DNA of 64,000 nucleotides. Origin: Nitrospirota bacterium. GTDB taxonomy: Bacteria > Nitrospirota > Thermodesulfovibrionia > Thermodesulfovibrionales > SM23-35. Location: contig JBFMDO010000043.1 of assembly GCA_040753615.1 (NCBI GenBank), positions 12,607-76,606 of the forward strand, read 5' to 3'. Below, in pieces: positions 12,272 through 38,567 of this stretch. The notes under the pieces are model-generated. The model was not told the DNA's origin and made no database searches. It was given only the letters and a program-made list of their open reading frames with translations. The position numbers and the translations under genes are program-made. How positions within the stretch are numbered: the first letter of the stretch is position 1; each line of letters starts with the position of its first letter.

Positions 12272-13702
12272 TCAAAATGTACTTCTGGTTGTAGGCGCAT
12301 TATCAATGCCGCTATTTACGACTGAGCCATGATAATGGCAACAATTGCAATCAATGGTGGCCGCATCCCTGTTGCTACAGGAAGCACTACCACCACCTGA
12401 CGTAGAAGCGTGGCACCCGCCGCACATACCTAAGTCATATGGGTTATCAGGACTTTCATGGTGTATATAGCACCATTCATTTGCGCTTCCAACTCCTGCA
12501 TCAGCATCATCCTTATGACATCTGTTACAGAGATATCCCAGATATTTATTACCTGCTGCATAAGTTGGCGTACAATCTACAGGCGTTAGTGTAGAAATAG
12601 TAGAAAGTGTTCCACCATTTACTTCTTCTCTTATCAGCATCAGATTCGGTGCGCCATGTGGCTCATGGCAGTCTGTACATGCAAGAACATATTGACCAAG
12701 ATATGTATTTGAATACGGATTATCTACGCTTATAGCACCATCAGCACCTATCTTTCCATGCTTATCACCGATAGCCCAGTCAATTGGGGTATTATCGAGA
12801 CCATAATCATAAGGGACATTACCCATATCTGTTACATGACAGTCCTGACAGAATGTAACATAATCAGTTAGATTTGACCCATCCTGATACGTTGAGCCAT
12901 CAGGTTCGTATGTTGCACCCCCAACACGGTATGGAGCTTGATATTTCAGAGCGCCTACATAATTACTCATCCTTTCAGTAGAAGCGCCATAAGGAGAGTC
13001 ATCTGAAATGTTATCCCCCCATAAACCCCACTCATTATTATCCTTGCTATGCTGGCTTGGACGTGAAACAGGCCAGCCTCTTGTAGTTGAACTCTTTGGA
13101 CTACTTCCATAAACAGAAGATTCTGCTGGATCTCCTTGTGTCCTATGGGGATTGTGGCAGCCGCAACAGGGGTTATTCGCATCAGTAATATATCCCCACT
13201 TGCCATTAAGGAACGTTTCAATAGTATCAAGGTTATGAGACGAGCCTGGTGAAACAAATGAAAATGACTCCAGAATGTCATTCTCGCTGCAGGTAGCAGC
13301 AGGACATGCGCCTGCCCGAAAACTATAATTACGGTTGATGATTCCAGAAGTTTGATAAGAAGACGTGTCAGTATGGCATTTGTAACAGAAGTTGTCTGTT
13401 TGGCTTACATGATTGGTATAAAATAAGGCATATATTGAAGGAGCGCCGCCGGCAGGCGCTGGTTCAGAGCCTCCGATCATTGCATGCTGCTCATGGCAGT
13501 GGGCGCAGTTGCCTATTGAATAGCCAAAGGAAGAAAGGCTTGAACGGTTAACGCCGTAATCACTTCTTCCATGCGCAGAAATGCTATACATAGGCACAGC
13601 AGGTGGATCAGGCAGAAGAGTATACACATTTTTTATTCCAACTGTAAAAGAAAACAATACTATAAAAAAAATCAGAAACTTATACCATCTTTTAAAAGAC
13701 AT
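12272..13702 (-). CDS. Secreted octaheme c-type cytochrome
   Basis: Signal peptide; 8 CxxCH (CAHCH, CYKCH, CCGCH, CQDCH, CTDCH, CNRCH, CGGCH, CNCCH); Ser/Gly/Asp-rich. Confidence 0.9.
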   Translation of the reverse strand: MSFKRWYKFLIFFIVLFSFTVGIKNVYTLLPDPPAVPMYSISAHGRSDYGVNRSSLSSFGYSIGNCAHCHEQHAMIGGSEPAPAGGAPSIYALFYTNHVSQTDNFCYKCHTDTSSYQTSGIINRNYSFRAGACPAATCSENDILESFSFVSPGSSHNLDTIETFLNGKWGYITDANNPCCGCHNPHRTQGDPAESSVYGSSPKSSTTRGWPVSRPSQHSKDNNEWGLWGDNISDDSPYGASTERMSNYVGALKYQAPYRVGGATYEPDGSTYQDGSNLTDYVTFCQDCHVTDMGNVPYDYGLDNTPIDWAIGDKHGKIGADGAISVDNPYSNTYLGQYVLACTDCHEPHGAPNLMLIREEVNGGTLSTISTLTPVDCTPTYAAGNKYLGYLCNRCHKDDADAGVGSANEWCYIHHESPDNPYDLGMCGGCHASTSGGGSASCSNRDAATIDCNCCHYHGSVVNSGIDNAPTTRSTF

Positions 13703-14730
13703 TATTTACCCCTTTTAACAGTGACTTCTATCTCATTGGAATATCTGCTCTCTCCGCCTGACTCATTTACAGCAGTGACTACATAATAATATGTTTTACC
13801 TTTATTTGTTTGTTCATCTGCAAATTTATGCTCAGAGATTAGAAAATCATTTATCCGCTGATAGGCTCCGCCAGGCACAGCGCTTCGATAAACATTATAT
13901 CCTGCAAGGTCAAGTTCATGATTCTTCTTCCAGTGCAGCAATACTGAATTTCTTTTGATAACTTCTGCTTTTAAATCTTGTGGAGGCGATGGTCTTTCAA
14001 TGCTCTGCGAAATCTTTACCATAAACTTTCTTGGATAATTATTATTAAGAAAAATAAATGATGAGGTGGTATGCATATCAATTTCTCCTCCACCTCCATC
14101 TACATCGCCTAACACTGCTTCTTTGTCAGGTATGATATTTCTCAGATCAGACCATTGAATAGTCAGATAGCCGGATATATTAGACGCAACCTCAAATGTC
14201 CATTCCTTTGGTAAATCAGGCGATTTTATATCCTGCCTGAATCTATCGAATACATGATTCCACTCGGGATGCGGAAAATAAGTATTAATATAAGCAGTAT
14301 TAAGACTGGCTGGTGGAGATGGGATATCCCATAAATTATCAAACCCATCAGTGGCGTCAGCCTTTACTCCTGCTATACAATAATCATAAATTCCACCACC
14401 TGATACCTTCAGGGTTATATTCCAGTCAGAACCTGCATAGGCAGGAGCCAGGGAAATTATTGAGATTAACATAATTACTAATAAGTTCATAAGTAAAACG
14501 ACACCTCCGTGGCGATTTCTGTCATTGCGGCTTGTCCGCAATCCTTCTTCACACACCCCTATCCCCTCTCGAGAGGGGAATAAGGGGTGTGTTGACTCTC
14601 GAGATGGGAATAAGGGGTGTGTGTCCCTCTCAAGATGGGACAGGATTCCCGACAAGCGGGAATGACAACAGACGAGTGACATTACTTTTAAACTTATAAT
14701 TAAGAGAAGTCGATATATCCTTATAAGCAT
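13702..14730 (-). CDS. Secreted fibronectin type III protein with a 75-codon MITE in its signal peptide
   Basis: AAGGAG RBS before ATG 14730; FN3 (L.W...DLAGYNVYR...YYYVVTAVN.SG.ES..S). Confidence 0.85.
   Translation of the reverse strand: MLIRIYRLLLIISLKVMSLVCCHSRLSGILSHLERDTHPLFPSRESTHPLFPSREGIGVCEEGLRTSRNDRNRHGGVVLLMNLLVIMLISIISLAPAYAGSDWNITLKVSGGGIYDYCIAGVKADATDGFDNLWDIPSPPASLNTAYINTYFPHPEWNHVFDRFRQDIKSPDLPKEWTFEVASNISGYLTIQWSDLRNIIPDKEAVLGDVDGGGGEIDMHTTSSFIFLNNNYPRKFMVKISQSIERPSPPQDLKAEVIKRNSVLLHWKKNHELDLAGYNVYRSAVPGGAYQRINDFLISEHKFADEQTNKGKTYYYVVTAVNESGGESRYSNEIEVTVKRGK
14478..14702. mobile_element. 225-bp MITE with nested REP-like palindromes, in-frame insertion
   Basis: ATAATTA direct repeat at 14471-14477 and 14696-14702; imperfect TIRs ATAAGTTcAtAAGTAA / TTACTTttAAACTTAT; internal GTCATT..GGAATGAC and CCCCTCTCGAGAGGGG hairpins. 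Confidence 0.85.
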
Positions 14731-14748
14731 ATCTGCTCTCCTTTTTAA

Positions 14749-16827
14749 TTAAGGTTTATAAAGTATCAGATAGAGGTCATAGTAAGCAAATATCCAGTAA
14801 CCCTTCCATGGCTCTAACTGAGCAACATCCCATTGAATAGAGTCATAGGTACTGCCATTCCATATATAAAGCGCATTTCCTATCCACTCTGAGACTACAG
14901 CATTCGCATATGTCTCTGGAGAGGTATATGTCACAGAACAGGAACTAAGGTTTACTGCTGTTCCATAAGGATTCCCGATCAAGTTCCAACCTGCCTTTAA
15001 AGAGAGGGTATATGATGAATCTGTGATTTCTGTGCCTGATGCATCAGAGGGATTATTTGTCCTCAGAGAATAAAGATAAAGACCAAATGCTGGACTAATA
15101 GTTGTGGCTTTTACATAATAACCTGCAGAACCAGGGTCGCCTGTTCCGGTCCATGTAGAATACCAGTAATGCATCCAGTTTAACCCTGCATCGTCTCCAA
15201 ATACAGCGCTGGCAGTATTAGGGCTTGGCTGTAATGGACATGAAACCATATTCCAGCCTGAGAGGAGACCTGTCTTTCCATTTGGGCTGGTCGTGGAAAG
15301 TTCAGATGTATTTAAGGCTTCATCTGATGACTTTATAGAAAAATAATATGTGGTGTTTGACTCCAGACCTGTTACAGTAAAATATTCTGTAGTTCCTGCA
15401 GTAGCAGGAGCAGGCTCTCCTGTTGCTTGCGTGGCTGAAGAAAATTGACCATCTGTTGTGATTGGTGATTTAGAATATCTTACATCATAACTTGACGCCT
15501 GTCCTATACCTCCATCATCGCCAGTCGCTGTCCATGTTAATTGTACAGAATTAGATCCCACTACTCCTGTTGTCGAGAGATTGGTTATAGCAGAAGGAGG
15601 GGTAGAATCACTCGATACAATAATATCAGGACCAGCAGTGTAATTATCATATGCGTATCTCTTGATTCTTTGATTATTATAATCAGCAACATATAAATAT
15701 TGCTGTCCGCTAAAAGGAGCAACAAAGATACCAAGGCTTACACTATTGGAATTAAACTGATAGTTGCCTGTGCCTGAACTTGTTCCACCAACAGTCATCA
15801 CCCAATTATTATTGGAATCAAACTGCTGAATGCGGTGATTCCCGCGGTCACTCACACAATAATATCCATTATTGTCAATAGACACTTGATAAGGACCATT
15901 AAATTGTCCATCTCCTGTGCCTCCTGAGCTAAGGATAGTAGTAAAACTTGAGCCTCCGTCAATAGATTTATACACCTTATTAGCTCCCCTATCAGCTACT
16001 AAGACAATATTGCTATTATAGGGATCAACTGCAACACCTGTAAGCGAAGTTGCGCCTGTAGGCTGAACACCGCTACTCCAATTGGCTCCTAAAGCTGTAG
16101 ACTTATAAACCTTGTTATAGCCTGTATCTACTGCATAAAGAATAGTTCCATCACTACTACAAGCTATATCCCGAGCATTAGGGTCTACCATCATTCCTGA
16201 CCACAATGAGTTATAACCCCAATTGCTTCCACCATCTGTTGAGTAGTAGAGCCTGTCATTGCTGTTGTCCAGAACGTATATTTTCTGTCCATCATTGCTT
16301 ATTGCTATCCCATATGCAACTCCGCCAGTATATGCTGTGACATCTGACCAGTTGTCTCCTCCATCAATGGACTTGTAAAGATTACCATTCGAGGCAGTCA
16401 TCCATAAAATATTGCTGTCAGATGGGTTAACAGCAATGTCATAAGGGTAATAAGCTATTGAGGAAGAGATTATCCATGCTATATCATCAATACGAAATGG
16501 GTAGGTAGCTTCTGGCACCATCGTGTTTGAATCATCCCTGCCGTTCCATATTTCGGAATTACTACCACTTGTTCTGTTTGCAGTATAGTAATTAGTTGGA
16601 AGCACCAATTTACGCTTTAAATTATCAGATAAATCATATATCCTTAGCCAGAGAATAGAAGAGTTCGCCAGATCATATGATATTGTGGTGGTTTCAGTAT
16701 CAGGATTAAAAGGATTAGGACTCACGGATACCCCGGAAACATTACCTGCCTCTCCTCTCACAAACATGGAGAGGATGAAACAAATACAGAAGAAAGCAAT
16801 TATTGGAAACTTATAAAACCTTTTCAT
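14749..16827 (-). CDS. Secreted FlgD-Ig / BNR-NHL beta-propeller / FN3 surface protein
   Basis: SPNPFNP..WNGRD FlgD-like domain; SxDGGxxW Asp-boxes; NHL repeats; FN3; C-terminal GWNMVS/GWNLIGNPY. Confidence 0.85.
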   Translation of the reverse strand: MKRFYKFPIIAFFCICFILSMFVRGEAGNVSGVSVSPNPFNPDTETTTISYDLANSSILWLRIYDLSDNLKRKLVLPTNYYTANRTSGSNSEIWNGRDDSNTMVPEATYPFRIDDIAWIISSSIAYYPYDIAVNPSDSNILWMTASNGNLYKSIDGGDNWSDVTAYTGGVAYGIAISNDGQKIYVLDNSNDRLYYSTDGGSNWGYNSLWSGMMVDPNARDIACSSDGTILYAVDTGYNKVYKSTALGANWSSGVQPTGATSLTGVAVDPYNSNIVLVADRGANKVYKSIDGGSSFTTILSSGGTGDGQFNGPYQVSIDNNGYYCVSDRGNHRIQQFDSNNNWVMTVGGTSSGTGNYQFNSNSVSLGIFVAPFSGQQYLYVADYNNQRIKRYAYDNYTAGPDIIVSSDSTPPSAITNLSTTGVVGSNSVQLTWTATGDDGGIGQASSYDVRYSKSPITTDGQFSSATQATGEPAPATAGTTEYFTVTGLESNTTYYFSIKSSDEALNTSELSTTSPNGKTGLLSGWNMVSCPLQPSPNTASAVFGDDAGLNWMHYWYSTWTGTGDPGSAGYYVKATTISPAFGLYLYSLRTNNPSDASGTEITDSSYTLSLKAGWNLIGNPYGTAVNLSSCSVTYTSPETYANAVVSEWIGNALYIWNGSTYDSIQWDVAQLEPWKGYWIFAYYDLYLILYKP

Positions 16828-16851
16828 AGTCCCCCCTCTCTTTACTATTTG

Positions 16852-18042
16852 CTATTGCTTTGACGTATGACACATAGCGCAATAATTATCACCTGTTCCT
16901 GGCCAGCCCTTATAGTCCCACCTCATCATCTTAAAATATGGTGATGCATGCGCCTTGTGGCATGAAAGACACATCACCATATCTGTGTTTAAATTAACTG
17001 CATTACTTGACCCTGTCCATCCAGTAAGATTTGGTCTTGCAACTGGAACCAAAGAATCATATGTTCCCACACCGCCGACTGCATTAAATGCTTTAGCATA
17101 TTCTCCAGAGTTTGGTATAACCAAATCTGAAGGATGTCTAATCCAAGGGCTTCCAGATGTTGCATCATCTTCTATATGGAAATTCCTGTGGCAACCAGTA
17201 CAGTATGCTGTCATAGTATTTCCTAAAGCTGAAAAACCTCCACCAGATGTCTTTGTACCGCTATAACCAAGATATTCATTATGATCTATACTGCTCTCTT
17301 GTTCCCAGTCATCATCCTCGATTCCGGTTACACCAAGCCCAGCACCACTCTGGTGGCCGTCCAGAAAACGATACCATCCTTCAGAAGCGCTATCTATTAG
17401 AGGTCCTGTATCATCTTTGTGATGATAACCCTTTGGTGTGCCTGGGTCTACTCCAACCATATGGCATTTAGTGCAGCCCTGCCGGGAGGAGACAAAGCCA
17501 AAATAGGGAGGACCTGTAGCTCCGTGTATATTCTCATGACAGGAATTAACACCACCGCAACTCCCTACTGTATCTCCAGGGGCTACAGTTAAAGTGCTCT
17601 CAGGGTTTGATAAGGCAAAAATATTATGTCCTTTAGTGTCTTCTGTCTGTACCCAATAGAAATTGCCTGCAGCCAGTCCTTGGTAAGTAGTTCCCCCATC
17701 TGAAGATGCTCCGTATTGAGGTGGAGATGTATTGAACACTATAGGCGCTTTTGTAACATTATCCTGCCATGTTATCCCATCTGTCTTTGAATGACAGCCT
17801 AAACAGGATGACTTGAGTAGATTATCTTTCGGTGATGTGTCTGTTTCACCTGGACCAAGGATTATCACAGGCTGACCGCCCTGGCTGTTGTGCATTGTAT
17901 GACAGTTGCTGCACGAACCTGTAACCTTTGCCTCCAGAGGCAGAGCAAAGAGCAAAGAGCAAAAAGTAAAGAGCAAAAAGTAAAAAACATATAGTAAAAA
18001 GTTTACACGGAGACTTGAGTTTATTAAGTTTTTTGGGTTCAT
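16852..18042 (-). CDS. OmcS-family multiheme cytochrome (6 CxxCH + 1 CX5CH)
   Basis: CSNCHTMHNSQGG, SSCLGCH, GNFYWV, KGHNI, RHPSD, CLSCHKAHAS, terminal CAMCH are OmcS-like motifs; plus CGGVNSCH and an extra CTKCH. Confidence 0.85.
   Translation of the reverse strand: MNPKNLINSSLRVNFLLYVFYFLLFTFCSLLFALPLEAKVTGSCSNCHTMHNSQGGQPVIILGPGETDTSPKDNLLKSSCLGCHSKTDGITWQDNVTKAPIVFNTSPPQYGASSDGGTTYQGLAAGNFYWVQTEDTKGHNIFALSNPESTLTVAPGDTVGSCGGVNSCHENIHGATGPPYFGFVSSRQGCTKCHMVGVDPGTPKGYHHKDDTGPLIDSASEGWYRFLDGHQSGAGLGVTGIEDDDWEQESSIDHNEYLGYSGTKTSGGGFSALGNTMTAYCTGCHRNFHIEDDATSGSPWIRHPSDLVIPNSGEYAKAFNAVGGVGTYDSLVPVARPNLTGWTGSSNAVNLNTDMVMCLSCHKAHASPYFKMMRWDYKGWPGTGDNYCAMCHTSKQ
17944..17985. repeat. Heptamer tandem repeat inside signal-peptide codons
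   Basis: agcaaag agcaaag agcaaaa agtaaag agcaaaa agtaaaa. Confidence 0.8.
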
Positions 18043-18055
18043 TCAGTTTTCAACC

Positions 18056-18197
18056 ATTTGTCATTAATTTAGTCATTTGTCATTTGTCATTAAAAAATGA
18101 CTATTGACTGATGACAATTGACTTTTTCTATTAAATTTTATGCAATAGCCATGCCATATTAGTCATTAGTCATTTTATTGACCAGTGACTCTTGACT
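18056..18197. repeat. Heptamer inverted arrays (GTCATTT/TGACTAT) flanking a sigma54 promoter
   Basis: gtcattt x3 ... tgactat tgactga tgacaat tgact; second array at 18157-18197. Confidence 0.75.
18141..18156 (-). promoter_or_regulatory. Sigma54 promoter for the 18042-12272 sub-operon
   Basis: Minus strand TGGCAT-GGCTA-TTGCA. Confidence 0.75.
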
Positions 18198-18599
18198 TAT
18201 ATCTACTAACCCCATTGTCTTAAAGTCTTCATCAAAGGCAAAATAATCCCTTATCTTCAGCTCTTTCATTAAAACGAAACTCGTGCAGTCTGTAAAAGAA
18301 AACTCCTTATCCGGGTGCTTTTTAAAAAAATTCCATGCCTTAAGCTTTAGCGATTCATCAAGCCAGAATATCTCAATTATTTTACTCGTTAATATAAATT
18401 CTCCTGCCACAACTGCAACATTATGGCTTACATTAGACATAATACCTGTAACGCATTCATCAAAAATATAGTCTGTTATTATCATCAGCGAATTTTCTTT
18501 TTTAATCTTCTCTAATATTATTTTTGCCTTCAAATGATTCTCATCTTTTTTGTAAAAAAGGGCTACAAAAGCACTTGTGTCAACAAAGATTTTTCTCAT
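18159..18599 (-). CDS. vapC: VapC/PIN domain toxin
   Basis: IFVDTSAF, DY..DE, SFTDC.SF, FAFDEDF. Confidence 0.9.
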   Translation of the reverse strand: MRKIFVDTSAFVALFYKKDENHLKAKIILEKIKKENSLMIITDYIFDECVTGIMSNVSHNVAVVAGEFILTSKIIEIFWLDESLKLKAWNFFKKHPDKEFSFTDCTSFVLMKELKIRDYFAFDEDFKTMGLVDISQESLVNKMTND

Positions 18600-19213: not shown

Positions 19214-19271
19214 AATTAACTACAAAATCAGCGGGGCGGTTTACCGCATCCGCTGGATTGGTTTGATATCT
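19214..19271 (+). other. Degenerate attC-like (59-be) site
   Basis: AATTAAC-5nt-AATCAGCGG...CCGCTGGATT-5nt-GATATCT; 58 bp, extrahelical G in the L' arm, GTT core mutated to GAT. Confidence 0.45.
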
Positions 19272-19638
19272 GGCTATTTTCAGTAAGATTGAGCCACATT
19301 TCTTGAAAAACATCGTCCAGTTTTTTGTCGATCGTCCATATTGGAACTCCTGTTAGTAATGCAGCAGCAAGTAAGTGGACATCTATGTAGCCTAATCCCT
19401 TTCCCAGTAGTCGGTTATTTTCTATAAATTTCATAACTTCATCATGTTCTGCTTGGATCGACATTGGAAGTGCTTGAAGTAAAGAAAGTATTTCATCTCT
19501 ATTATTAAGGTTCCCACAAGCCAATTCCCCAACGATAAATGGATGACAAACAACATCTCCATCATTCAATAGTTTCTCCAACGCGGTATTGCCTTCTCGC
19601 AAATGGGATACCCATACTGAAGTGTCAACAAGAACCAT
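19228..19638 (-). CDS. vapC: VapC/PIN domain toxin
   Basis: MVLVDTSVWV, HPFIVGELACG, GLGYIDVHLLA, WTIDKKL. Confidence 0.92.
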   Translation of the reverse strand: MVLVDTSVWVSHLREGNTALEKLLNDGDVVCHPFIVGELACGNLNNRDEILSLLQALPMSIQAEHDEVMKFIENNRLLGKGLGYIDVHLLAAALLTGVPIWTIDKKLDDVFQEMWLNLTENSQISNQSSGCGKPPR

Positions 19639-26888: not shown

Positions 26889-27485
26889 TCAGAATAATGT
26901 ATTAATAGCTTCTTTTACTGTTTTTCTTGCAGCATCACTCAGCGAAATCCCTTCTGAACCAAAATGTCTTGTCCAGAAACTCGCGCCGCCTGTTGTATGC
27001 CTTATTGACCCGATAATGCTGCCTGAAGTTGCATCTATCAACATAAAATTGATCGTAACCTCAGGATAAGTTACTGAGATACCCCTGCTTATTCCAAAGG
27101 CTTCTACTGAACCGCTCATCACTGCTTCCACACCGAGTGTCTTCCCCATTTCCTGCAGTTCTGTGGTCTTTATAGAACCGAGAGACCTGACCTGCAACTC
27201 CCTCAGAAGTCTTGTAACTTCTCCTGGTTCGACCACATCTATACCTTTTAGCAGGAGTTCAGTAATCGCTATCCTTCTAATCTTTTCGCCTGCATAGCTA
27301 TCGCCTGTAAAGTTTTCAAAAGGTAAGACAGCTATCTTTTTGATATTTGCTATATCACCTTCTGACTTTATAAAGTAGTCGGGACCACACCCGTGTATAA
27401 AAATCAGTAAAAAACCAAGAACCAGCACATAGCTCAAATTACAGAGCAATAGATTATTACGAGATAAATCTTGTTTGCCAGCCAT
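26889..27485 (-). CDS. CsgG/DUF799-like lipoprotein (paralog of neighbour)
   Basis: Lipobox IHGC; KIAVLPFENFT; GASFW.RHFG. Confidence 0.8.
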   Translation of the reverse strand: MAGKQDLSRNNLLLCNLSYVLVLGFLLIFIHGCGPDYFIKSEGDIANIKKIAVLPFENFTGDSYAGEKIRRIAITELLLKGIDVVEPGEVTRLLRELQVRSLGSIKTTELQEMGKTLGVEAVMSGSVEAFGISRGISVTYPEVTINFMLIDATSGSIIGSIRHTTGGASFWTRHFGSEGISLSDAARKTVKEAINTLF

Positions 27486-29935: not shown

Positions 29936-31702
29936 CTAAAATGGAAACATGGCTATGCCGTAAGGCTTCCTGCCTACAGGCATAATCCGTTCTTCCTTCC
30001 TTGTATTTTTATCTATTTCTGATACAGTATCTGAACCTCTGTTGACCACATATATCTTCCTGCCTTCTGGGTCCAGAATCAATGACCTCGGGGAGTCTCC
30101 TGCTGGTATGACGCCAATCAGAGGAGCCATTGTCATTGTTCCTGTCAAAGAACTAAAAGCCTCTGAGAAAGGCCTGATAATAATTATCTCATCAGCGCTG
30201 TCCTTCAGGAGATAAATCCTGTCCAGATCAGGGTCAGTGACAATTCCTGTGATAGAAGTTCCGACATTAGTGATAGAACTTACTGCACCGGTTTTATTGC
30301 CTTTAATAATCTGCAGGATATCTATAACAGAAAGATTGTCAAAATTATAATTTGCCACATAAACCTTTCCCCGCTGATAATCTACTGTAAGTGCGATAGG
30401 GTTCCATTCAACATTTACATTAATTATTGCATCAGGACTGCTTACTGATGAGGCATCCATTCTTAAGATAGAGACCTCTTTTGAATTTTTATTCACAACA
30501 TATACATTAAAGAATTTCTCGCGATAACTTCTCAAAATGCTAATATCTTCAATGCTGAGAAATCTTGATCCAAAAATGATATCTACTGGCGGATCGACTG
30601 CCACTGCAACAGGGCCATCTCCTACGCTTATCATTTGTATTTCCTGATAGGTCGAGGCATCAATAACAGATATTGTATCAGAGGCGTAATTTGCCACAAA
30701 AATGAATTCTTTCCCACGCGATGTGCTGACCACAGCAATAGCCTCAGGTTCTCTGCCAAATCTTATTGGTATCTCAACCTCAACCTTGTTAGTATGGGGA
30801 TCTATTACAGAGACACTGTTAGAGCCTGAATTTGCCACATAAATTCTCGGACGTTCTCTATTCCAGTTTGCAGCAATGCCCCTCGGTTTTTTCCCCACCA
30901 TTATAGTTGCCGCTACATCGCCTGTCTGCCGATTAAGCACAGACACATTATTTGATTCTTCATTCGTAACATAGATAAGCAAAGAGCTTAACTCGGGGAC
31001 CTCACCTTTAATATCGAATACAGGACTGAATAGATATCCGTCAACAATAGATGCGTCAGGTCTCCAGCTTAAAAACAGCGATGCGCTCTGATTTTTATTT
31101 ATTATTATATCTATATCTATTTCTATTCCTTCAGGCGGGAGCGCTAAATTTGATATCCTGTCTTCCCGCTTAATTAATGCCTCTTGTATTATTAGTTGCA
31201 GTTTTTTGTATCTTCCTTCAGGGAGAGACTTTTCGCCGAGAAGCATCTGTCTGCCTGCAACTGAAAAGGAGTTTATATTCATTTGGGCGCTCATTACCCC
31301 CCTGTATGTTCCATCTTCTGCCATAATATTAATAGCTAAAACATCAAATGTAATATTCAGGGAAGCCTTTTCATGTCCTTTAAGGAATATTGCAATCTGC
31401 CCCTTGTCTGATTCTGTCTCTTCATATTTCTGAATCGAGGCACAACCTGTTAAAAGAAAAAAGAAGCAGAGGGCAAAAACCCAGGAACTGAGGACTAATA
31501 ACTTAGAGCTATTGATACATATAAAATAATGTCTTATGTTTTTGTTATATCCTATTGTATCCTTGTCATTCCTGCGGAAGCAGGAATCCAGGGAAAAGAC
31601 TGGATTCCGCATCAAGTGCGGAATGACGATAGAGGACATTTTTATACAGGAGTCAATAATAACCACGAGAGGGTTTCGATAAATCTGTCTATTGTATAAC
31701 AT
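29936..31702 (-). CDS. YVTN/YncE beta-propeller lipoprotein with a MITE in its leader
   Basis: Lipobox LTGC; IYVTNEESNNVSV, IYVANSGSNSVSVID repeats; N-terminal DUF4382-like region (LPEGRY). Confidence 0.88.
   Translation of the reverse strand: MLYNRQIYRNPLVVIIDSCIKMSSIVIPHLMRNPVFSLDSCFRRNDKDTIGYNKNIRHYFICINSSKLLVLSSWVFALCFFFLLTGCASIQKYEETESDKGQIAIFLKGHEKASLNITFDVLAINIMAEDGTYRGVMSAQMNINSFSVAGRQMLLGEKSLPEGRYKKLQLIIQEALIKREDRISNLALPPEGIEIDIDIIINKNQSASLFLSWRPDASIVDGYLFSPVFDIKGEVPELSSLLIYVTNEESNNVSVLNRQTGDVAATIMVGKKPRGIAANWNRERPRIYVANSGSNSVSVIDPHTNKVEVEIPIRFGREPEAIAVVSTSRGKEFIFVANYASDTISVIDASTYQEIQMISVGDGPVAVAVDPPVDIIFGSRFLSIEDISILRSYREKFFNVYVVNKNSKEVSILRMDASSVSSPDAIINVNVEWNPIALTVDYQRGKVYVANYNFDNLSVIDILQIIKGNKTGAVSSITNVGTSITGIVTDPDLDRIYLLKDSADEIIIIRPFSEAFSSLTGTMTMAPLIGVIPAGDSPRSLILDPEGRKIYVVNRGSDTVSEIDKNTRKEERIMPVGRKPYGIAMFPF
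31510..31658. mobile_element. 147-bp (+TA) MITE, in-frame insertion
   Basis: Imperfect TIRs TATTGA..AAAAT(A)ATGTC; TA target duplication; internal GTCATTCCTGCG..GGAATCCA/TGGATTCC..GGAATGAC REP doublet. Confidence 0.8.
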
Positions 31703-31711: not shown

Positions 31712-33157
31712 TCACTTTTTTATAATAACAAAATGGACTCTTCTATTTTTCTGCATACATTCTTTTGTTCTTTCTCTGCATACAGATTTTTCTTCACCAT
31801 AGCTTATAGTCTCTATCCTTTTTGATGGCACGCCAAGCGAAATAAGATAATCCTTTGCCGCATTTGCCCTTTTCTCTCCAAGTGCGAGATTATATTCATT
31901 TGTATCCATTTCATCGCAATGCCCTTCGATCAAAAGTCCTGCTGATGTATTCTTACGCAGCCATGAGGCAATCTCCTTTAAAATAGGCCTTGCATCTGCT
32001 TTTATATCATATTTATCAGTATCAAAATATATATCCTTAAAAATAACTTTTTCTATATGTTCAGGTTCCTTTTCTTCTGCCTCTGTCTCTATCTTCGCAA
32101 CCTGTTCCTCTGTTATTTTTTCTTCTATTACAACTTCTTGAGCAACAATTTCTTCTTCCACTGGTTGAAACACCTGTATACGGTCATTAAATGTATCCGC
32201 TACAAAAATCCTGCCTTGTGAGTCCACAGCTATATCTCTCGGGTACTGGAACCATCCCTCTCCCCAGCCAAGACCACCGAATTCAAAAAGATATTCGCCA
32301 TTCTTATCATAAGCAGAAACCGTATGTCTCATGTAATCTACAACATATATTCTGCCGTTTCGGTTATCCACAGCGACTGCCTGTGGTCGGCTTAACTTAC
32401 TTTTACCTCCACCTTTCTGCCCAAACTTAAAGAGGAAGTTTCTATTTTCGTCATAAACATAGATATGGCTAACTTCCTCACTGACAAGATATATCCTTCC
32501 TGCTTTATCCAGTGTTACATAATTAACCTGAACCTTCCTGTCTTCTTCTTCAGGTGAAAGAATATCTATAAACTGTCCGTCATTATTCAGTATCACAATT
32601 CCCGGAAAAGAGTAACTGGCAACATAAATATCCCCTTTTTTATCCACAACTAACCTATATGGAATGAAAGACGCAGATCCCTCAAAGCCGTGAAAATAAA
32701 TGTCCCTCGTCCATTTAAGGCAGGCATTGTAAACCGAGAGCCTGTGTCTCGGATTTTCGTTCGTTCCAGCCTGAGCAATGTAAAAATTGCCACTCTTATC
32801 AATTGTTAAGCCCTGTGGCATATGAACTCCATCTGCTTTATCAAGGGTAAAAATCGGGAAAAAGTCTGAAGTATAAATAACAACCCTCGCATCGCTGTCA
32901 ATGATATAAATTTCTTTCATACCATCTTCAGTAAAAACAAAAGAAGGGAATAAAGTCTTCCCCCCTTCTTCATCCTCGGTTATGACATCAATATAGGTTA
33001 CCGGTACCCCCTCTATAAAGGCATTCAATTTATTTGGGAAAGACAGCATAGAGCATAGAGCTAACAGCAGAGAGCACAAGATTATCCATACCTCTCTCCA
33101 ACACTTTAAAAATTCAAATCTTTCGATCTTCTTTGTTTCAGATAGTTTACTTCTCAT
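31712..33157 (-). CDS. NHL beta-propeller fused to an OmpA/Pal peptidoglycan-binding domain
   Basis: NHL repeats (FQYPRDIAVDSQGRIFVADTFNDRIQVF); IYFDTDK, IEGHCD, YNLALGEKRA, SYGEE, NRRV. Confidence 0.9.
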   Translation of the reverse strand: MRSKLSETKKIERFEFLKCWREVWIILCSLLLALCSMLSFPNKLNAFIEGVPVTYIDVITEDEEGGKTLFPSFVFTEDGMKEIYIIDSDARVVIYTSDFFPIFTLDKADGVHMPQGLTIDKSGNFYIAQAGTNENPRHRLSVYNACLKWTRDIYFHGFEGSASFIPYRLVVDKKGDIYVASYSFPGIVILNNDGQFIDILSPEEEDRKVQVNYVTLDKAGRIYLVSEEVSHIYVYDENRNFLFKFGQKGGGKSKLSRPQAVAVDNRNGRIYVVDYMRHTVSAYDKNGEYLFEFGGLGWGEGWFQYPRDIAVDSQGRIFVADTFNDRIQVFQPVEEEIVAQEVVIEEKITEEQVAKIETEAEEKEPEHIEKVIFKDIYFDTDKYDIKADARPILKEIASWLRKNTSAGLLIEGHCDEMDTNEYNLALGEKRANAAKDYLISLGVPSKRIETISYGEEKSVCRERTKECMQKNRRVHFVIIKK

Positions 33158-33222
33158 GGTTTAATTTAATTTATACTGCAAAAGTGTGTCAATGCAATTT
33201 TCATCTAAAATACTCCTCTTCC

Positions 33223-33705: not shown

Positions 33706-33719
33706 AAATAATTAACTTA

Positions 33720-34709
33720 CTACCTCTGTCTATTGTGGCATCCAAGACAGCCATATGTTACACCTGAACCAGCCACTTGTGTAGCATTATAATCCCACCT
33801 TAAAATGTCGTTATATTGTGCACCATGAGACCTGTGGCATGACAAGCATGTAACTCTTGCATTTGCAGCAGTTTCTGTTTCAGCGTTAAATCCTAATGGA
33901 TGGTTTCTCATTGCATCGGCATCGGCTGTCCATTCAGTAGCAAAATTAACGTATATATCCCACGTAGTAGGTATTGCAACATCAGTGGGATGTCTTACAA
34001 ATGGGCTTGCCGCACCTGTGTCATCGCTTCCATGGAAATTACTGTGGCATTTACCGCATAGTTCGCTTATGCTTGGCCCGCCAACTGTTGCGCTGTAGAC
34101 ATTATGGGCAGTTCCTACACCAGAGATTAGTAATTCCTCATAATCAGCTGTCCCGGTACCGAGAACACCATTAGCGCCAACATAAAGGATACGATAGACC
34201 GAAGGGGCATGATGTCCTCCCTTGATAGCAGCCATGTCATCAAGATCTGTCTGATTACCGTGGCAACCATTTGTCCCGGCACAACCCAATCCATTGGTAG
34301 CTCCTGTATACCAAGCATTTTCTGCTGCATCAAACCCAGCGGGTGAAGCAGTAGCGCCTAAATCATGATCGGTATCACTGTTATTATCTGCGGTGTTAGC
34401 AGTTGGCTGGAAGAATCCGCCTGCAAGGCAGTTGTTATTAGTAAAACCACCTGCAACAGAAGTTCTCACATATGGATAACCACCAACAAGGGGGTCAGTA
34501 CCTGTAGTTGTATGACATCCAAGACAGTTGTTTACCAGCAACGCACTATATGGCCCGGCAGTACCCCAGGAACTTAAGGTCCCACCGCCCTGGCTATAAT
34601 GCATGGTATGGCAATTTGCACATGGGCCACTTACAGCTGCATCAGCAAATCCATAGACTAAAAAGAGCGAGAGAAAAGCTACAAGTCCTAAAATTAATAT
34701 CTTTTTCAT
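33720..34709 (-). CDS. OmcS-family hexaheme cytochrome, probable major filament subunit (5 CxxCH + CX5CH)
   Basis: CANCHTMH, CLGCH, CAGTNGCH, ISELCGKCH, RHPTD, CLSCHRSH, CLGCH; strong RBS AAGGAGGTGA; own promoter and terminator. Confidence 0.85.
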   Translation of the reverse strand: MKKILILGLVAFLSLFLVYGFADAAVSGPCANCHTMHYSQGGGTLSSWGTAGPYSALLVNNCLGCHTTTGTDPLVGGYPYVRTSVAGGFTNNNCLAGGFFQPTANTADNNSDTDHDLGATASPAGFDAAENAWYTGATNGLGCAGTNGCHGNQTDLDDMAAIKGGHHAPSVYRILYVGANGVLGTGTADYEELLISGVGTAHNVYSATVGGPSISELCGKCHSNFHGSDDTGAASPFVRHPTDVAIPTTWDIYVNFATEWTADADAMRNHPLGFNAETETAANARVTCLSCHRSHGAQYNDILRWDYNATQVAGSGVTYGCLGCHNRQR

Positions 34710-34823
34710 TCCTTTTCACCTCCTTCCCCTTTAGATTCTTAAATCCTTTTGGATAGCAAAGGATTTAAGGCATAAAGCTAAGGGCTATTTTCTGCCTTCC
34801 TTTACTATCCACAGATAAATTCT

Positions 34824-34839
34824 TGCAATCAATATGCCA
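34824..34839 (-). promoter_or_regulatory. Sigma54 promoter of the major OmcS-like gene
   Basis: Minus strand TTGGCAT-ATTGA-TTGCA. Confidence 0.78.
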
Positions 34840-35073
34840 ACTTTTTGTACAAAAAAAGCATAAAGCCATAAAAAAGAACTTTTTTTAATCGCCCTTCTCC
34901 CCTTAGCTCTATGCTTAAATGTATTTAAAAATATTAGTTAATTTTTGTCAAGCTATTTTTACTCTTTTATCGCTAAATACGAGTTGTATATACTTGATTA
35001 CATAAAGTATGTAACTATTTACACAATTATTTCCGAATGGATCATCTCGACCCCTTGACCCCTCGAACCCTTA

Positions 35074-36159
35074 TTATTGATCCCCTTTTCTTGTATGACA
35101 TGTGAGGCAGCCTACGCGTGTGCCATTACGGACATACATGTTGTCATAGTCCCATCTGAGTATATCAGGATAGGGGCTTGCATGCGCCCTGTGGCATGAA
35201 AGACACATTATTATGCTCTGTGCATTAACCTCTTTTTCACCCCCTGTTGGTTCATAATAAGCAACAGGAGCCTCAAGGCTGTACTTGACATAACTTTCAT
35301 ACTCAGAACCTGCAAAACCAATATGCACAGCATCAAATGCAAGGTCAGAAGGGTGCCTTAGCCAGACAGTAGTATACGCCTGACCAACTTCCTTACTCCC
35401 GCCAAGATTTGGATGGGGATGAAATTTTGCATGGCATTGACCACAGAGATAACTTATAGTATCCATACTGTCATGAGTCATATCGCCTTTATACCCATTA
35501 TGATTATCATCAGTAGCAAGGTATTCCCAATCTTTATGTTCCCTGCCTTTTATTCCATAAAGGAAGCGGTAACTTCTACCGACTGTTAAACCATCTATCA
35601 CGCTGTCATCTTCGTGATGTGCTCCATGAATAGCCTTATACGGGTCTTCTATAGCCCTGTTGCCATGACACCCCCATGTCCCGGCGCAGGCAAGCTGTTT
35701 GTAAGATGGCCAATCTTCTGTCCCTATGCCTCCATGAATTATGACACCACCGATAAATCCAGGCGGAATATTCATGGGGGGATTTTCCTGAATAGATACA
35801 TCAAGCACATTATGTCCTTTTGCATATTGAGGATTATAACCGTCTGCAACATAATAGAAATTACCTGCAGCAAGGTCTCCGTTTCCCATGTGGTGGAGAA
35901 CCTGAGGAATCCGTGCCTTTCCAATGGTCATTATATTCTGAGCGCCAGCAGGATCCTGACCATGACAGCCGAGACATCCACCCTGTGTCAGAATAGGAAA
36001 TGGTCCTGTGCGTTCTCCATAGGTCATTTCTTCACCTTCGTAACTGTCATGCATTGTATGGCAATCTTTACATTTCCCCTTAACGCGGGCATCAACCAAT
36101 CCACAATATAAGACGAGTATCAGTATCATGACAGAACTTGTTATAAATGCCTTTTTCAT
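35074..36159 (-). CDS. OmcS-family hexaheme cytochrome (5 CxxCH + CX5CH)
   Basis: CKDCHTMH, CLGCH, AAGNFYYV, KGHNV, CAGTWGCH, CGQCH, RHPSD, CLSCHRAHAS, CLTCH; likely start ATG 36159. Confidence 0.85.
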   Translation of the reverse strand: MKKAFITSSVMILILVLYCGLVDARVKGKCKDCHTMHDSYEGEEMTYGERTGPFPILTQGGCLGCHGQDPAGAQNIMTIGKARIPQVLHHMGNGDLAAGNFYYVADGYNPQYAKGHNVLDVSIQENPPMNIPPGFIGGVIIHGGIGTEDWPSYKQLACAGTWGCHGNRAIEDPYKAIHGAHHEDDSVIDGLTVGRSYRFLYGIKGREHKDWEYLATDDNHNGYKGDMTHDSMDTISYLCGQCHAKFHPHPNLGGSKEVGQAYTTVWLRHPSDLAFDAVHIGFAGSEYESYVKYSLEAPVAYYEPTGGEKEVNAQSIIMCLSCHRAHASPYPDILRWDYDNMYVRNGTRVGCLTCHTRKGDQ

Positions 36160-36174
36160 CTCTCTAATCCCTTT

Positions 36175-36239
36175 GTCATTAGTCAATTTAATGACCAGTG
36201 ACTTCTTTCACTGACCAGTGACTGTTGACTATTGACTAT
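36175..36239. repeat. Heptamer inverted array
   Basis: gtcatta gtcaatt ... tgaccag tgact ... tgaccag tgactgt tgactat tgactat. Confidence 0.75.
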
Positions 36240-36241
36240 TT

Positions 36242-37285
36242 TTATTTTCCTGTATGGCATATAAAACAACCGCCCTTTCCTTCCTCCCCGGTAATAACAG
36301 CATCATAATCCCATCTCAAAATTGAGTCATAATGACCTGAGTGTGCTACATGGCATGAAAGGCATGTTACAATGTCACTGCCTATTTTTACCTCATCCGT
36401 TGACGACAGAGGGATTTTTTCCCTTCCCACAGGCGCATCAGGGTTATAAATCCTCACATCAGGTCTATCAGGCGGAGGCGGAACTTCAGGGTTATACTCT
36501 GCATACTCGCCATTTTTTGGCAGGACAATGCCTGTTGGATGTCTGAACCATGGGCTTCCTTTGCCTGTATTTTCATTGCCATGAAAATCGCCATGGCAGC
36601 TTGCGCAGAGTATATCTATCGTTGGACAATACTCATTATGCTTTTCTTGGGTTTTATTCTGATTCCATTCATCATCCTCAAGTCCCGAAACACCTTTCAC
36701 TTTATTGGTATTCCCTAAGAACCTGTAACTTCTGGCTGTTGTGCTGCCATCTATTGGGTCATCCTCTGCATGGTGGGAGCCTAAGATTGCTTCAAATGGG
36801 TCTTCTATGTTTCTGTTGCCATGACAGCCATTGGCGCCTGCGCATGCCAATTGTTTCCTATGGTTATAACCTATCTCTGACGGGTCAACTGCCCTGCTAT
36901 ATCCCGGGGGACTGAATAAAAATTTCTCATCCATATACGTAACACCATCCACATTATGTCCCTTTCTGTCGCCAAAATCCCTCGCCACATAATAGAAGTT
37001 TCCGCCTGCCAATGGTTTTAGCGGCAAAACAGTATTCCTAACCACAGGAACTCTAACCCCTGCAAGCATTTTTATAGTATCCCTGTCATTATTTGAATGG
37101 CAGTTCACACAGATGGCATTTTCCAGCACATACTCAAGCGGTTCTCCTATTTCTGCTTCCTTCATCATCCCGGGATAAACAGTATGGCAGACATCACAGT
37201 CATCCGAAACTATTGCACCGCGGACTTCAGAAATTGATAAAAAGAGGATAGTCAATAAGATAATACTTATAGCTAAGTTCTTCAT
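36242..37285 (-). CDS. OmcS-family hexaheme cytochrome lacking the CHTMH His
   Basis: CDVCHTVY, CVNCH, AGGNFYYV, RKGHNV, CAGANGCH, CASCH, RHPTG, CLSCHVAH, CFICH. Confidence 0.82.
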   Translation of the reverse strand: MKNLAISIILLTILFLSISEVRGAIVSDDCDVCHTVYPGMMKEAEIGEPLEYVLENAICVNCHSNNDRDTIKMLAGVRVPVVRNTVLPLKPLAGGNFYYVARDFGDRKGHNVDGVTYMDEKFLFSPPGYSRAVDPSEIGYNHRKQLACAGANGCHGNRNIEDPFEAILGSHHAEDDPIDGSTTARSYRFLGNTNKVKGVSGLEDDEWNQNKTQEKHNEYCPTIDILCASCHGDFHGNENTGKGSPWFRHPTGIVLPKNGEYAEYNPEVPPPPDRPDVRIYNPDAPVGREKIPLSSTDEVKIGSDIVTCLSCHVAHSGHYDSILRWDYDAVITGEEGKGGCFICHTGK

Positions 37286-37328
37286 ATTCTTTAATTATAC
37301 TAAAAATTTAATATCTTGAAAGATAAAG

Positions 37329-37344
37329 AGCAAAAATGGTGCCA
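37329..37344 (-). promoter_or_regulatory. Sigma54 promoter
   Basis: Minus strand TGGCAC-CATTT-TTGCT, 44 bp upstream of ATG 37285. Confidence 0.75.
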
Positions 37345-37352
37345 GATATGAG

Positions 37353-38567
37353 CTACTTTTTACTTTTTGTTTTTGGCTTCTTGCCATAGTCATGGCAGGC
37401 AGCACACAGTTCCGAGCCTTTAGATGCCTTATATTTAAATAGAGTTATATAAGCAGAACTGTGAGGGTCATGACACGTAGTGCAGGAAAGCTCTCCATAT
37501 TTTGATCTCGTATCTTTCCTGTTTTTAAGCGGATGCCCGGCTTGTGTAAAGCCGCCTGTTGCATGGGGTTCCTTGCCAATTCTCGGATGGCAGAGCAGAC
37601 AGCCGTCAGTTATTGGATGATAAAGCAGGGCTACATCCTTTGAGGCATGAGGCTCATGACATACCATGCACATGCCAGCTTCTACAGGGGGGTGGGCATT
37701 TTTCTTATAAAATCCTGTCTTATCATGACACATGAAACAGAGTTCAGGAAAATCAGCAAGAAGAAGTTTTCTTGCATTGCCCTGATGAGGTTCATGACAG
37801 CTCATACATAACCCTGCTGCCACAGGAGAATGATTAAAATCATTTTTAAATTCCGCGCCATCGTGGCATAAATAACATACCTCTGGGGCAGCCTTTAACA
37901 GCAGCTTCTGAGCCTCTGAAGAATGAGGTTCGTGACAGTTCAAACACAATCCTGTTGCCACAGGGGAATGATGTTTTTTCTTTTCTTTTGAAATATATTT
38001 TTCTTTCTTGTGACATATAAAACATACTTCTGGTATATCATCGAGCAGAAGCTTTTTTGCCTTACTGCTGTGCGCATCATGGCATCCAGTGCATTTACCC
38101 TCGCCTACTGGCGGATGCTTGGATGTTCTCATAAAATCAGTTTTATCATGGCAGTAAAAACAAATATCCGGCATTGGCGCAAGAAGCAGGGACGGAGCAT
38201 CAGAGGTGTGGACATCATGGCATGATAAACATTCCATTTTTGCTACAGGGGGATGTCCAACCTTTTTTGAAAACATTGCTTTATTATGACAGCCCCAGCA
38301 GAGGTCAACCTTTTCAGCAAATAAATATTTGGGGAACTTTGCTCCCCTGATGTGCGCCTCTTTATGGCATGAAACACAGCTCGTAGGGTGATCATAATTT
38401 CCAGCTACTTTTATCTTGTGACATTTCATACAATCAGGAAATTGTTGGGAGAAAGAGATATCAGGCATTAAAAAAACAGCAACTGAAAAAATAATGGCAG
38501 AAAAAAGACACATTCTTAAATCTCTTAATTTTTCAATCATCCATTGCCACCAATTGTTTTGTATCAA
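37353..38567 (-). CDS. Periplasmic 15-heme cytochrome c (paired CXXCH repeats)
   Basis: 15 CxxCH; ~46-aa repeats HxPV..G.CxxCHxPH.S...LL....P.xCxxCH; start possibly 38540. Confidence 0.92.
   Translation of the reverse strand: MIQNNWWQWMIEKLRDLRMCLFSAIIFSVAVFLMPDISFSQQFPDCMKCHKIKVAGNYDHPTSCVSCHKEAHIRGAKFPKYLFAEKVDLCWGCHNKAMFSKKVGHPPVAKMECLSCHDVHTSDAPSLLLAPMPDICFYCHDKTDFMRTSKHPPVGEGKCTGCHDAHSSKAKKLLLDDIPEVCFICHKKEKYISKEKKKHHSPVATGLCLNCHEPHSSEAQKLLLKAAPEVCYLCHDGAEFKNDFNHSPVAAGLCMSCHEPHQGNARKLLLADFPELCFMCHDKTGFYKKNAHPPVEAGMCMVCHEPHASKDVALLYHPITDGCLLCHPRIGKEPHATGGFTQAGHPLKNRKDTRSKYGELSCTTCHDPHSSAYITLFKYKASKGSELCAACHDYGKKPKTKSKK

Follow-up and report, generated by a model that had tools for sequence, protein, structure and literature searches.

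An osc-like gene cluster with OmcS-type multi-heme cytochromes in a groundwater Nitrospirota bacterium

The osc operon of Geobacter and the Nitrospirota locus

Among described systems, the one nearest to the locus reported here is the osc ('omcS companion') operon of Geobacter, to which omcS, omcT and the OmcS-like gene oscC (GSU2501) belong (PMC13194489). We compare with it a stretch of 64,000 nucleotides, hereafter the window, from the genome assembly GCA_040753615.1 of a Nitrospirota bacterium, in which positions 12272-38567 carry four homologues of OmcS, named S1 to S4, together with four further multi-heme cytochromes and a set of envelope and folding genes. In Geobacter, OscD has been assigned to morphology, OscE/F/G to secretion and OscH to folding, and OscI and OscJ are GSU2495 and GSU2494 (PMC13194489). 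GSU2501 is followed by a block of eight genes, GSU2500-GSU2493, in every Geobacter genome having the GSU2501 block (PMC12977616). GSU2497 is a lipoprotein (PMC3495685) and GSU2495 is a protein of ~70 kDa with 26 hemes (PMC12977616; PMC2996986).

OmcS homologues are found in diverse bacteria and are highly expressed in co-cultures with direct interspecies electron transfer (DIET; PMC10954620), and OmcE homologues are found in five phyla including Nitrospirota (PMC13712944). FeGenie annotation has placed OmcS genes in metagenome-assembled genomes (MAGs) of Thermodesulfovibrionia, which were read as iron reducers (PMC8478452). That osc-type machinery is widespread is already published. Shen et al. 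(2025) are said to call the omcS-osc assembly machinery 'widespread and ancient', with the operon of Geobacter sulfurreducens at GSU2504-GSU2493; their paper and article supplements lay outside our literature search, which found no description of the make-up of the present cluster in Nitrospirota.

All genes of the window between 12272 and 38567 lie on the minus strand, and every gene listed for this co-oriented set in a preliminary description of the DNA does exist. The eight multi-heme cytochrome genes contain 86 CXXCH and 4 CX5CH motifs, a motif count of 90 sites that agrees with the ~90 claimed there. They make up 8 of the 18 multi-heme open reading frames (ORFs; those with three or more CXXCH) and 86 of the 159 CXXCH motifs of the 2.29-Mb genome. 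From high to low coordinates, the genes are:

37353-38567, minus strand: c15, a 404-amino acid (aa) secreted cytochrome with 15 CXXCH, MtrA/DmsE-like
36242-37285, minus strand: S1, a 347-aa OmcS-like cytochrome with 5 CXXCH and 1 CX5CH, without the donor histidine described below
35074-36186, minus strand: S2, a 370-aa OmcS-like cytochrome with 5 CXXCH and 1 CX5CH, donor histidine present
33720-34709, minus strand: S3, a 329-aa OmcS-like cytochrome with 5 CXXCH and 1 CX5CH, donor histidine present
31712-33157, minus strand: NHL-OmpA, an NHL beta-propeller with a C-terminal OmpA-type domain
29936-31702, minus strand: propeller lipoprotein, with DUF4382 and a Lactonase/YNCE-type propeller (Pfam)
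27559-29871, minus strand: barrel, a 770-aa outer-membrane protein, putatively a large beta-barrel
26889-27485, minus strand: Lp1, a 198-aa CsgG/LpoB-like lipoprotein
26269-26853, minus strand: Lp2, a 194-aa LpoB-like lipoprotein with a canonical lipobox
25186-26250, minus strand: Lp3, 354 aa, two copies of one CsgG/LpoB-like domain
23456-25081, minus strand: parvulin peptidyl-prolyl isomerase (PPIase), two parvulin domains, probably a lipoprotein
21435-23393, minus strand: c26, a 652-aa lipoprotein cytochrome with 26 CXXCH in MtrA-like modules
20090-21469, minus strand: c16, a cytochrome with 16 CXXCH and a signal peptide, its annotated start probably too early
19228-19638 and 18159-18599, minus strand: two PIN-domain genes, inserted between c16 and S4
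16852-18042, minus strand: S4, a 396-aa OmcS-like cytochrome with 6 CXXCH and 1 CX5CH, seven sites in all, donor histidine present
14749-16827, minus strand: a secreted NHL/BNR/fn3 protein (Pfam)
13702-14730, minus strand: a secreted fn3 protein (Pfam)
12272-13702, minus strand: c8, a 476-aa cytochrome with 8 CXXCH, conserved as the final gene of the cluster

As in Geobacter, an OmcS-like gene stands directly upstream of an envelope and folding block (S3 ends at 33720 and NHL-OmpA starts at 33157); nine genes lie between S3 and c26, including NHL-OmpA, the propeller, the barrel, Lp1-Lp3 and the parvulin. In both cases the block is followed by a ~70-kDa cytochrome of 26 hemes, in the window c26 (652 aa, 26 CXXCH). 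A second multi-heme cytochrome comes next, in the window c16, whose counterpart would be OscJ (GSU2494). The protein c26 shares with GSU2495 the heme number, the size and the place after the folding factor, a match by published description and not by sequence. We consider that the locus is probably a Nitrospirota version of an OmcS/osc-type system for the assembly and charging of nanowires.

A terminator-like hairpin stands directly after S3 (33701-33682, pattern scan), and promoter-like sites, which are consensus matches only, are located ahead of c15, NHL-OmpA and c26. Because of these pattern matches, the subunit genes might be transcribed separately from the machinery genes, although such matches give no more than a hint of it. 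An Rfam scan of positions 11000-44000 returned 0 matches at E<=0.1.

OmcS homologues with variant heme sites

Judged by sequence, the four S cytochromes are secreted homologues of OmcS. S4 matches the OmcS entry 6EF8 of the PDB at E=2.6e-7 (residues 42-376 against 7-346), and S1-S4 are mutually related at E values from 1e-26 to 1e-52, those between S2 and S1, S3 or S4 ranging from 1e-33 to 1e-52. A profile of 100 relatives including S1-S4 matches 6EF8 at E=1.9e-29, with the runner-up PDB entry at 4.6e-4, and its positions 32-331 of 358 align with residues 8-348 of the 407 of OmcS. The label 'OmcS-like' given to these cytochromes earlier is therefore borne out by these sequence and profile comparisons. 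All six heme motifs of OmcS and its conserved distal histidine positions have aligned counterparts in the S family. The fifth motif, CLSCH, plus a histidine three residues on, is present in all of S1-S4, and these columns are conserved in 105 of 106 relatives. The alignment suggests that the S proteins may share the OmcS fold and its polymerisation as well.

The family is a large one. Searching exhaustively with S4 gave 921 cluster representatives at E<=1e-3, of which 205 reach E<=1e-30, and the nearest relatives of S4, at up to 57% identity, carry Desulfovibrionales, Thermodesulfobacteriota and Desulfuromonadaceae MAG names. The host of the window is indeed a non-Geobacter lineage, as the preliminary description had stressed; however, with 921 family representatives and OmcS in Thermodesulfovibrionia already published, this is less surprising than it implied. 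In a larger S tree, which is midpoint-rooted and printed without support values, nine metagenome proteins with six plain CXXCH lie apart from the window-type S proteins, and one lies close to OmcS. The window-type proteins fall outside this OmcS-proximal clade, in keeping with the distinct subunit family that had been proposed. S2 and S3 match the OmcS-proximal protein of one metagenome locus (L092, described below) at E=2.7e-13 and E=8.9e-11, respectively.

The S proteins differ among themselves in their heme sites. At the third site of S1-S3 a CX5CH stands opposite the third CXXCH of OmcS in the alignment, and it presumably binds heme. The three 'hexahemes' first described thus have six sites each, the sixth being a CX5CH that is expected rather than known to carry a heme. 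The fourth OmcS-like gene, S4, is likewise a relative of OmcS, but has seven sites and not six, with the extra site after heme 3. Among 106 related S proteins, 35 have seven sites and 68 have six.

A second variable feature is a histidine three residues after the histidine of motif 1, at OmcS chain position 16, which S2, S3 and S4 have and S1 lacks. Of the 106 S proteins of related clusters 91 keep it, as do 95 of the 112 proteins of full length within the 150 best family matches. We take His16 of OmcS to be a ligand to the heme of the neighbouring subunit, and the histidine after motif 1 reportedly bonds the heme of the adjacent subunit in the OmcS structure of Wang et al. (2019). The inter-subunit bond of OmcS is also stated in PMC12307469. 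In the tree of 106 proteins, S1 belongs to a clade of 13 members (12 loci and the window), all of which have Phe or Tyr at the position of this donor histidine, while retaining every heme motif and the CLSCH..H element. Two members of the S2 clade are likewise without the donor histidine.

A gene set that accompanies OmcS-type genes in Nitrospirota and beyond

A scan of one genome per species with the barrel alignment yielded 58 loci, in which the barrel is present by construction. Fifty-four carry Nitrospir*/Thermodesulfovibrio* names, 3 are named 'Bacterium' and 1 is a Deferribacteres-labelled MAG (a 4.7-kb contig); no locus named Geobacter or other Thermodesulfobacteriota is among the 58. 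The common gene order is one to three S genes, NHL-OmpA, propeller, barrel, Lp1, Lp2, Lp3, parvulin, c26, c16, S and c8. Presence, which is limited by contig ends, amounts to 58 of 58 loci for the barrel, 57 for Lp1, 56 for the propeller and for Lp2, 50 each for NHL-OmpA, Lp3 and the parvulin, 47 for c26 and for S, 44 for c16, 26 for c8 and 3 for c15. We regard the cluster as a stable 13-gene unit in 58 species-level genomes. From barrel to c8 it is contiguous in three relatives of the same family, which have neither the PIN genes nor the NHL/fn3 pair. The locus had been termed 'complete': the genes listed are all present, but the term is overstated, as a c15 homologue was found in just 3 of the 58 loci and the pair of surface proteins is specific to the strain.

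Of 401 sampled genomes of the phylum, 37 have a match to the barrel profile at E<=1e-10, and in 26 of them, all of the host's class, it is a strong one; 65 have a match to the S profile, which is strong in 29. A strong S match is present in every one of the 26 genomes with a strong barrel match, and 26 of the 29 with a strong S have a strong barrel, the other three being G284, G202 and G082 (98, 100 and 70% complete). These figures are a description and not a statistical test, as kin genomes are not independent. The cluster is present in 9 of the 12 other sampled genomes of the host family and in 0 of 14 of another family of the same order. In other Nitrospirota families, weaker S-like matches (E 1e-30 to 1e-37, 430-500 aa; G143:C4, G075:C22, G260:C4, G081:C65, G131:C1, G176:C341 and G320:C3) lie a few kb from weaker barrel-like matches (E 1e-11 to 1e-31). 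Because these weak matches adjoin each other, they suggest a second, divergent cluster type in those families.

The association extends to other lineages. A metagenome scan seeded with a six-sequence, Desulfuromonas-type subgroup of c26 gave 80 loci. According to family hidden Markov models (HMMs) made from the Nitrospirota loci, 13 of the 29 loci that are >=9 kb long combine the barrel, Lp, parvulin, c26 or 42-heme fusion, and S; two of these 13 are near-identical. In these metagenome loci the NHL protein, c8 and the propeller usually stand after the cytochromes. A link to OmcS itself is provided by L092, whose S protein, of 411 aa and with six CXXCH, has an OmcS match at E=1.3e-52. Its neighbours match the window proteins at 2.9e-153 (c26), 2.5e-142 (c16), 1.9e-34 (Lp2), 6e-18 (NHL-OmpA) and 4e-10 (parvulin), and the barrel at 4e-6 by family HMM. 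Because of this co-occurrence in L092 and the other metagenome loci, the accessory set is tied to OmcS-type genes well beyond Nitrospirota. As regards the 'osc-like' machinery of the preliminary description, what holds is that the accessory set, including its hallmark 26-heme cytochrome, travels with OmcS-type genes across lineages; its identity with the Geobacter machinery is weighed further below.

The heme numbers of the two largest cytochromes are nearly fixed. Twenty-six motifs are present in 41 of 42 full-length c26 orthologues, the exception being a 41-motif c26-c16 fusion, and 16 motifs in 42 of 43 c16 orthologues; all 26 motifs of c26 are invariant in a 30-sequence cross-phylum alignment. 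The search with c26 gave 2,659 relatives; among the best 120, the CXXCH number is exactly 26 in 30 proteins and exactly 42, the sum of 26 and 16, in 67 proteins of ~1,060 aa. Zixibacteria, Krumholzibacteria, Latescibacterota and Gemmatimonadaceae names are found among those of these 120 that are ~1,050-1,080 aa long. The 26-heme homologues include a protein of a Desulfuromonas sp. MAG (32% identity, 99% coverage) and an Acidobacteria protein, but no Geobacter one among the matches listed. Fusion of c26 and c16 into a 41-42-heme protein of ~1,000-1,200 aa is seen in the metagenome loci L081, L092, L093, L096, L097, L101 and L104, and a c26-c16 fusion is also present in a Nitrospirota locus (L012:17164-20409).

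The lipobox of c26 is conserved in its orthologues. The protein scores 305 bits with the DmsE family, above the cut-off, and its residues 253-456 match PDB chain 6r2q_A at E=3.4e-20, which we take to be MtrA of the Shewanella baltica MtrCAB complex. In the sequence file this chain of 333 residues is labelled 'Cystathionine beta-synthase'; the label seems wrong, as the chain matches a multi-heme cytochrome. We also considered c26 as a membrane-anchored quinol dehydrogenase of NrfH type, since its N-terminus matches NrfH at E=5e-16, but the orthologues show a lipobox and not a retained helix, which leaves this a weak possibility. For c15, Paired_CXXCH_1 matches at E=2.4e-75, and the DmsE family (TIGR03508) gives 191.1 bits against a cut-off of 192.2. 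No PDB sequence relative was found for c8, which follows the downstream S gene in 26 of the 58 loci and also occurs in the metagenome loci of other lineages. Its H44, just past the signal peptide, is kept in 21 of 22 c8 proteins, and M245 is invariant.

Several of the envelope and folding genes could be assigned to known domains. Pfam confirms the NHL-OmpA protein (OmpA 1.3e-22, NHL 1.1e-18), the propeller lipoprotein and the double parvulin (Rotamase_2 5.3e-35 in two stretches). The lipobox of the propeller lipoprotein is conserved in orthologues, and its true start is probably later than that of the ORF. The three proteins first called 'CsgG/DUF799-like' are paralogous and CsgG/LpoB-like, but the likeness is weak: Lp1 matches CsgG at E=0.0056, below the cut-off, and is a paralogue of Lp2 (E=7e-45), Lp2 matches LpoB at 1.6e-6, and Lp3 matches CsgG at 1e-7 and LpoB at 2.3e-7. 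The halves of Lp3 match each other and Lp1/Lp2 at E values of 1e-9 to 1e-16, and Lp1-Lp3 together represent four copies of one CsgG/LpoB-like domain.

The 770-aa outer-membrane protein is present as described, yet its status as a beta-barrel comes without any sequence-family match. It has no Pfam, NCBIfam or PDB sequence match, a family profile run against the PDB included, and its 35 homologues have no Pfam match either, MtrB_PioB (PF11854) included. The barrel call rests on a signal peptide, an aromatic C-terminal end and its structural neighbours in the Atlas, which are uncharacterised outer-membrane proteins of Thermodesulfobacteriota (TM score 0.72-0.74) and MtrB/PioB clusters (0.42-0.46). 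Relatives at E<=1e-3 number 195 among 8,000 scored candidates, and all named relatives among the 120 listed are Nitrospirota or Thermodesulfovibrionales. We regard it as a putative barrel of no described family.

Two insertions interrupt the order of the cluster in the window. The PIN genes between c16 and S4 (PIN matches of 9e-12 and 1.9e-7) are absent there in 3 of 3 relatives of the same family, and we do not count them as part of the cytochrome system. The 'two surface proteins' of the preliminary description, a secreted NHL/BNR/fn3 protein and an fn3 protein, are present but constitute a genome-specific insertion between S4 and c8: the pair has no homologue in the 58 loci and is not found there in 3 of 3 same-family relatives. 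A third PIN-domain (VapC-like) gene is located just upstream of c15 at 38727-39197. Directly upstream of the cluster, 39520-42966 on the minus strand encodes a secreted protein of 1,148 aa that has repeats of the NosD/right-handed beta-helix kind (E=1.6e-70).

Host, mechanism and comparison with known systems

The host appears to be a groundwater sulfate-reducing member of the Nitrospirota (Thermodesulfovibrionia). Nine of nine organism-named relatives of the RpoA of the same contig, among 120 listed, are Nitrospirae/Nitrospirota or Thermodesulfovibrio sp. at 72-77% identity, which together with the names of 54 of the 58 related loci upholds the earlier assignment to a probable Nitrospirota. 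The only sequencing run that contains the stretch is a groundwater metagenome, possibly its own source. The host genome is 100% complete by marker genes and encodes DsrA (588 bits) with an adjoining DsrB-like gene, AprA (878 bits) and, at full length, a triheme cytochrome of the c7 type. Each accessory gene occurs in it once, as against six S paralogues, two of which are on contig C16. These two OmcS-like genes (C16:20650-21774, seven-site; 22193-23356, six/seven-site) have no accessory genes and stand beside cell-division and lpt/rpoN-type genes.

The window also contains a type IV pilus set at 47141-56198 on the minus strand, ~8.6 kb upstream of the cytochrome cluster. It consists of two PilB-like ATPases (54393-56198 and 52573-54378) that are 84% identical, PilT (51444-52538), PilC (50228-51442), a PilS-like kinase (48492-50093) and a sigma-54 PilR-like regulator (47141-48529, minus strand), and no pilin gene follows pilR in the window. 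In Geobacter the same pilB-pilT-pilC-pilS-pilR order presumably stands beside pilA, and secretion of cytochrome nanowires is said to be aided there by the pilus. Elsewhere in the host's own genome, contig C19 encodes at ~27770-27950 (minus strand) a very short type IV pilin of ~59 residues past the cleavage motif, and directly downstream of it a 126-aa secreted protein (C19:27359-27739). We take this pilin to resemble the truncated, Geobacter-type PilA-N, so that its 126-aa neighbour would parallel PilA-C.

From homology, co-occurrence and heme arithmetic we infer the following functional steps, filament formation and export among them. The S proteins would be matured in the periplasm with the double parvulin as foldase. 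Their export would be through a complex in which the 770-aa outer-membrane protein is joined by the propeller lipoprotein and by the four CsgG/LpoB-like domains, arranged as a ring or scaffold, and which NHL-OmpA would anchor to the peptidoglycan. Once outside, S2, S3 and S4 would assemble into a head-to-tail polymer in the manner of OmcS, with the histidine after motif 1 completing the coordination of the CLSCH-bound heme in the adjacent subunit. The lipid-anchored c26 and the soluble c16 could form a wire of 42 hemes that carries electrons across the periplasm to the filament base, perhaps together with c15 and the triheme c7.

A bolder version of this scheme seems to us quite unlikely as a whole: a polar filament of several subunits instead of a homopolymer, with S2, S3 and the seven-site S4 as an interchangeable body, fed by the lipid-anchored 42-heme wire of c26 and c16 across the periplasm without soluble carriers. 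In such a filament proteins of the S1 type would be placed at one end only, as cap, nucleator or membrane-proximal adaptor, because they have the acceptor motif but not the donor histidine and could take a histidine from a neighbour without providing one.

Several points weigh against an OmcS/osc-type nanowire system. Taken alone, S1 matches OmcS 6EF8 at only E=0.0037, and S3 has no OmcS match at E<=1 in the PDB sequence search. Since conserved non-motif histidines of the S proteins exceed the hemes that they would have to ligate (eight in S3), the donor histidine could in principle act inside its own subunit. The comparison with osc is one with published descriptions of GSU2493-GSU2501, and OscH is taken to be a PPIase and one of OscE/F/G to be a barrel. 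For the S family, filament formation, export and conductivity are predictions from the genes. In Geobacter, only OmcS itself is known to polymerise, the functions of OmcT, OmcJ and GSU2501 being given as unknown (PMC12977616), and OscC is listed as periplasmic (PMC13194489). The resemblance of c26 to MtrA also belongs here, and is taken up below.

Even if such nanowires are formed, the direction of electron flow is not settled. Electrons could be passed out to Fe(III)/Mn(IV) minerals or to a partner, or drawn in for sulfate reduction, and because dsr/apr genes are present, uptake is as plausible as export. It is possible, though less likely than not, that the flow is reversed, with sulfate reduction fed by electrons taken up from Fe(II) minerals, Fe(0) or a syntrophic partner, for example an archaeon that oxidises methane or alkanes. 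DsrA and AprA above their cut-offs with the DsrB-like neighbour, 18 multi-heme cytochromes in the genome with 8 of them at the locus, and the high expression of OmcS homologues in DIET co-cultures (PMC10954620) are suggestive of such a possibility. However, sequence does not fix direction, dsr/apr genes also serve sulfur oxidation or disproportionation, OmcS-bearing Thermodesulfovibrionia have been interpreted as iron reducers (PMC8478452), and no partner or expression data were found.

It is unlikely, in our view, that the locus encodes a porin-cytochrome conduit in which the barrel sheathes c26/c16 (or c15) as MtrB does MtrA, with the S proteins as monomeric or loosely attached surface reductases and the lipoproteins and parvulin assembling the conduit. 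The match of c26 to 6r2q_A (E=3.4e-20), the MtrA chain that sits inside a porin, speaks for it, as do the DmsE score of c26 above the cut-off (that of c15 being 1 bit below), the MtrB-like size of the barrel and the MtrB_PioB clusters among its structural neighbours. In addition, the secretion and anchoring of OmcS have been called 'still speculative' (PMC12307469). However, no MtrB_PioB Pfam match was found in the 35 barrel homologues and the Atlas TM score is just 0.42-0.46; c26 is a lipoprotein whose 26 hemes would extend far beyond the thickness of the outer membrane; and no MtrC/OmcA-type decaheme scores above its cut-off. A conduit also leaves the near-invariant donor histidine unexplained, and Geobacter genetics assign OscE/F/G to the secretion of OmcS (PMC13194489). 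That the S proteins are periplasmic carriers or capacitors sharing OmcS ancestry, with the envelope genes serving an unrelated surface structure, is very improbable: the periplasmic listing of OscC and the two S paralogues away from the cluster on C16 would fit, but the gene order is strictly conserved in the 58 loci, S and barrel co-occur in the phylum sample and the same gene association recurs in unrelated lineages.

As an OmcS/osc-type system, the locus places this kind of extracellular electron transfer in uncultured sulfate-reducing groundwater Thermodesulfovibrionia. It suggests that part of this class may wire itself to minerals or partner cells, which bears on the cycling of iron, sulfur and methane in the subsurface. 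It also offers handles on how such wires are built, namely the fixed 26+16 hemes, the recurrent c26-c16 fusion, the non-donor S1 clade and the seven-site subunits.

In comparison to the osc operon of Geobacter, where one gene of the block, GSU2497, is annotated as a lipoprotein, the window has three paralogous CsgG/LpoB-like genes with four domains, four in-cluster S genes of three types, and c15 and c8 in addition, and its host is a sulfate-reducing Nitrospirota. The weak to moderate Pfam matches of Lp1-Lp3 are shared with lipoproteins of the CsgG/LpoB/FlgO type, but these matches score close to or under the cut-offs, the four domains group as a separate family and curli genes are absent. Like MtrCAB of Shewanella, the locus combines MtrA/DmsE-like paired-CXXCH modules, in c26, c16 and c15, with a large outer-membrane protein nearby; unlike it, it has no MtrB_PioB match and no MtrC/OmcA-type protein, and c26 is a 26-heme lipoprotein. 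The OmcE nanowire clusters have the same two kinds of neighbour gene as the window (PMC13712944), whereas the subunits of the window belong to the OmcS family and not to the tetraheme OmcE family. With OmcS itself (6EF8/6NEF), the S proteins have in common ~340 homologous residues, the six motif positions, His16 and CLSCH..H, but they are 329-396 aa long, heme site 3 of S1-S3 is CX5CH instead of CXXCH, S4 has a seventh site and the S1 type is without the donor histidine. The points in which this locus varies on the known theme are thus the CX5CH sites, the seven-site subunits and the His-less S1 clade; the fixed 26+16 = 42 hemes of its two large cytochromes are a further point of interest.

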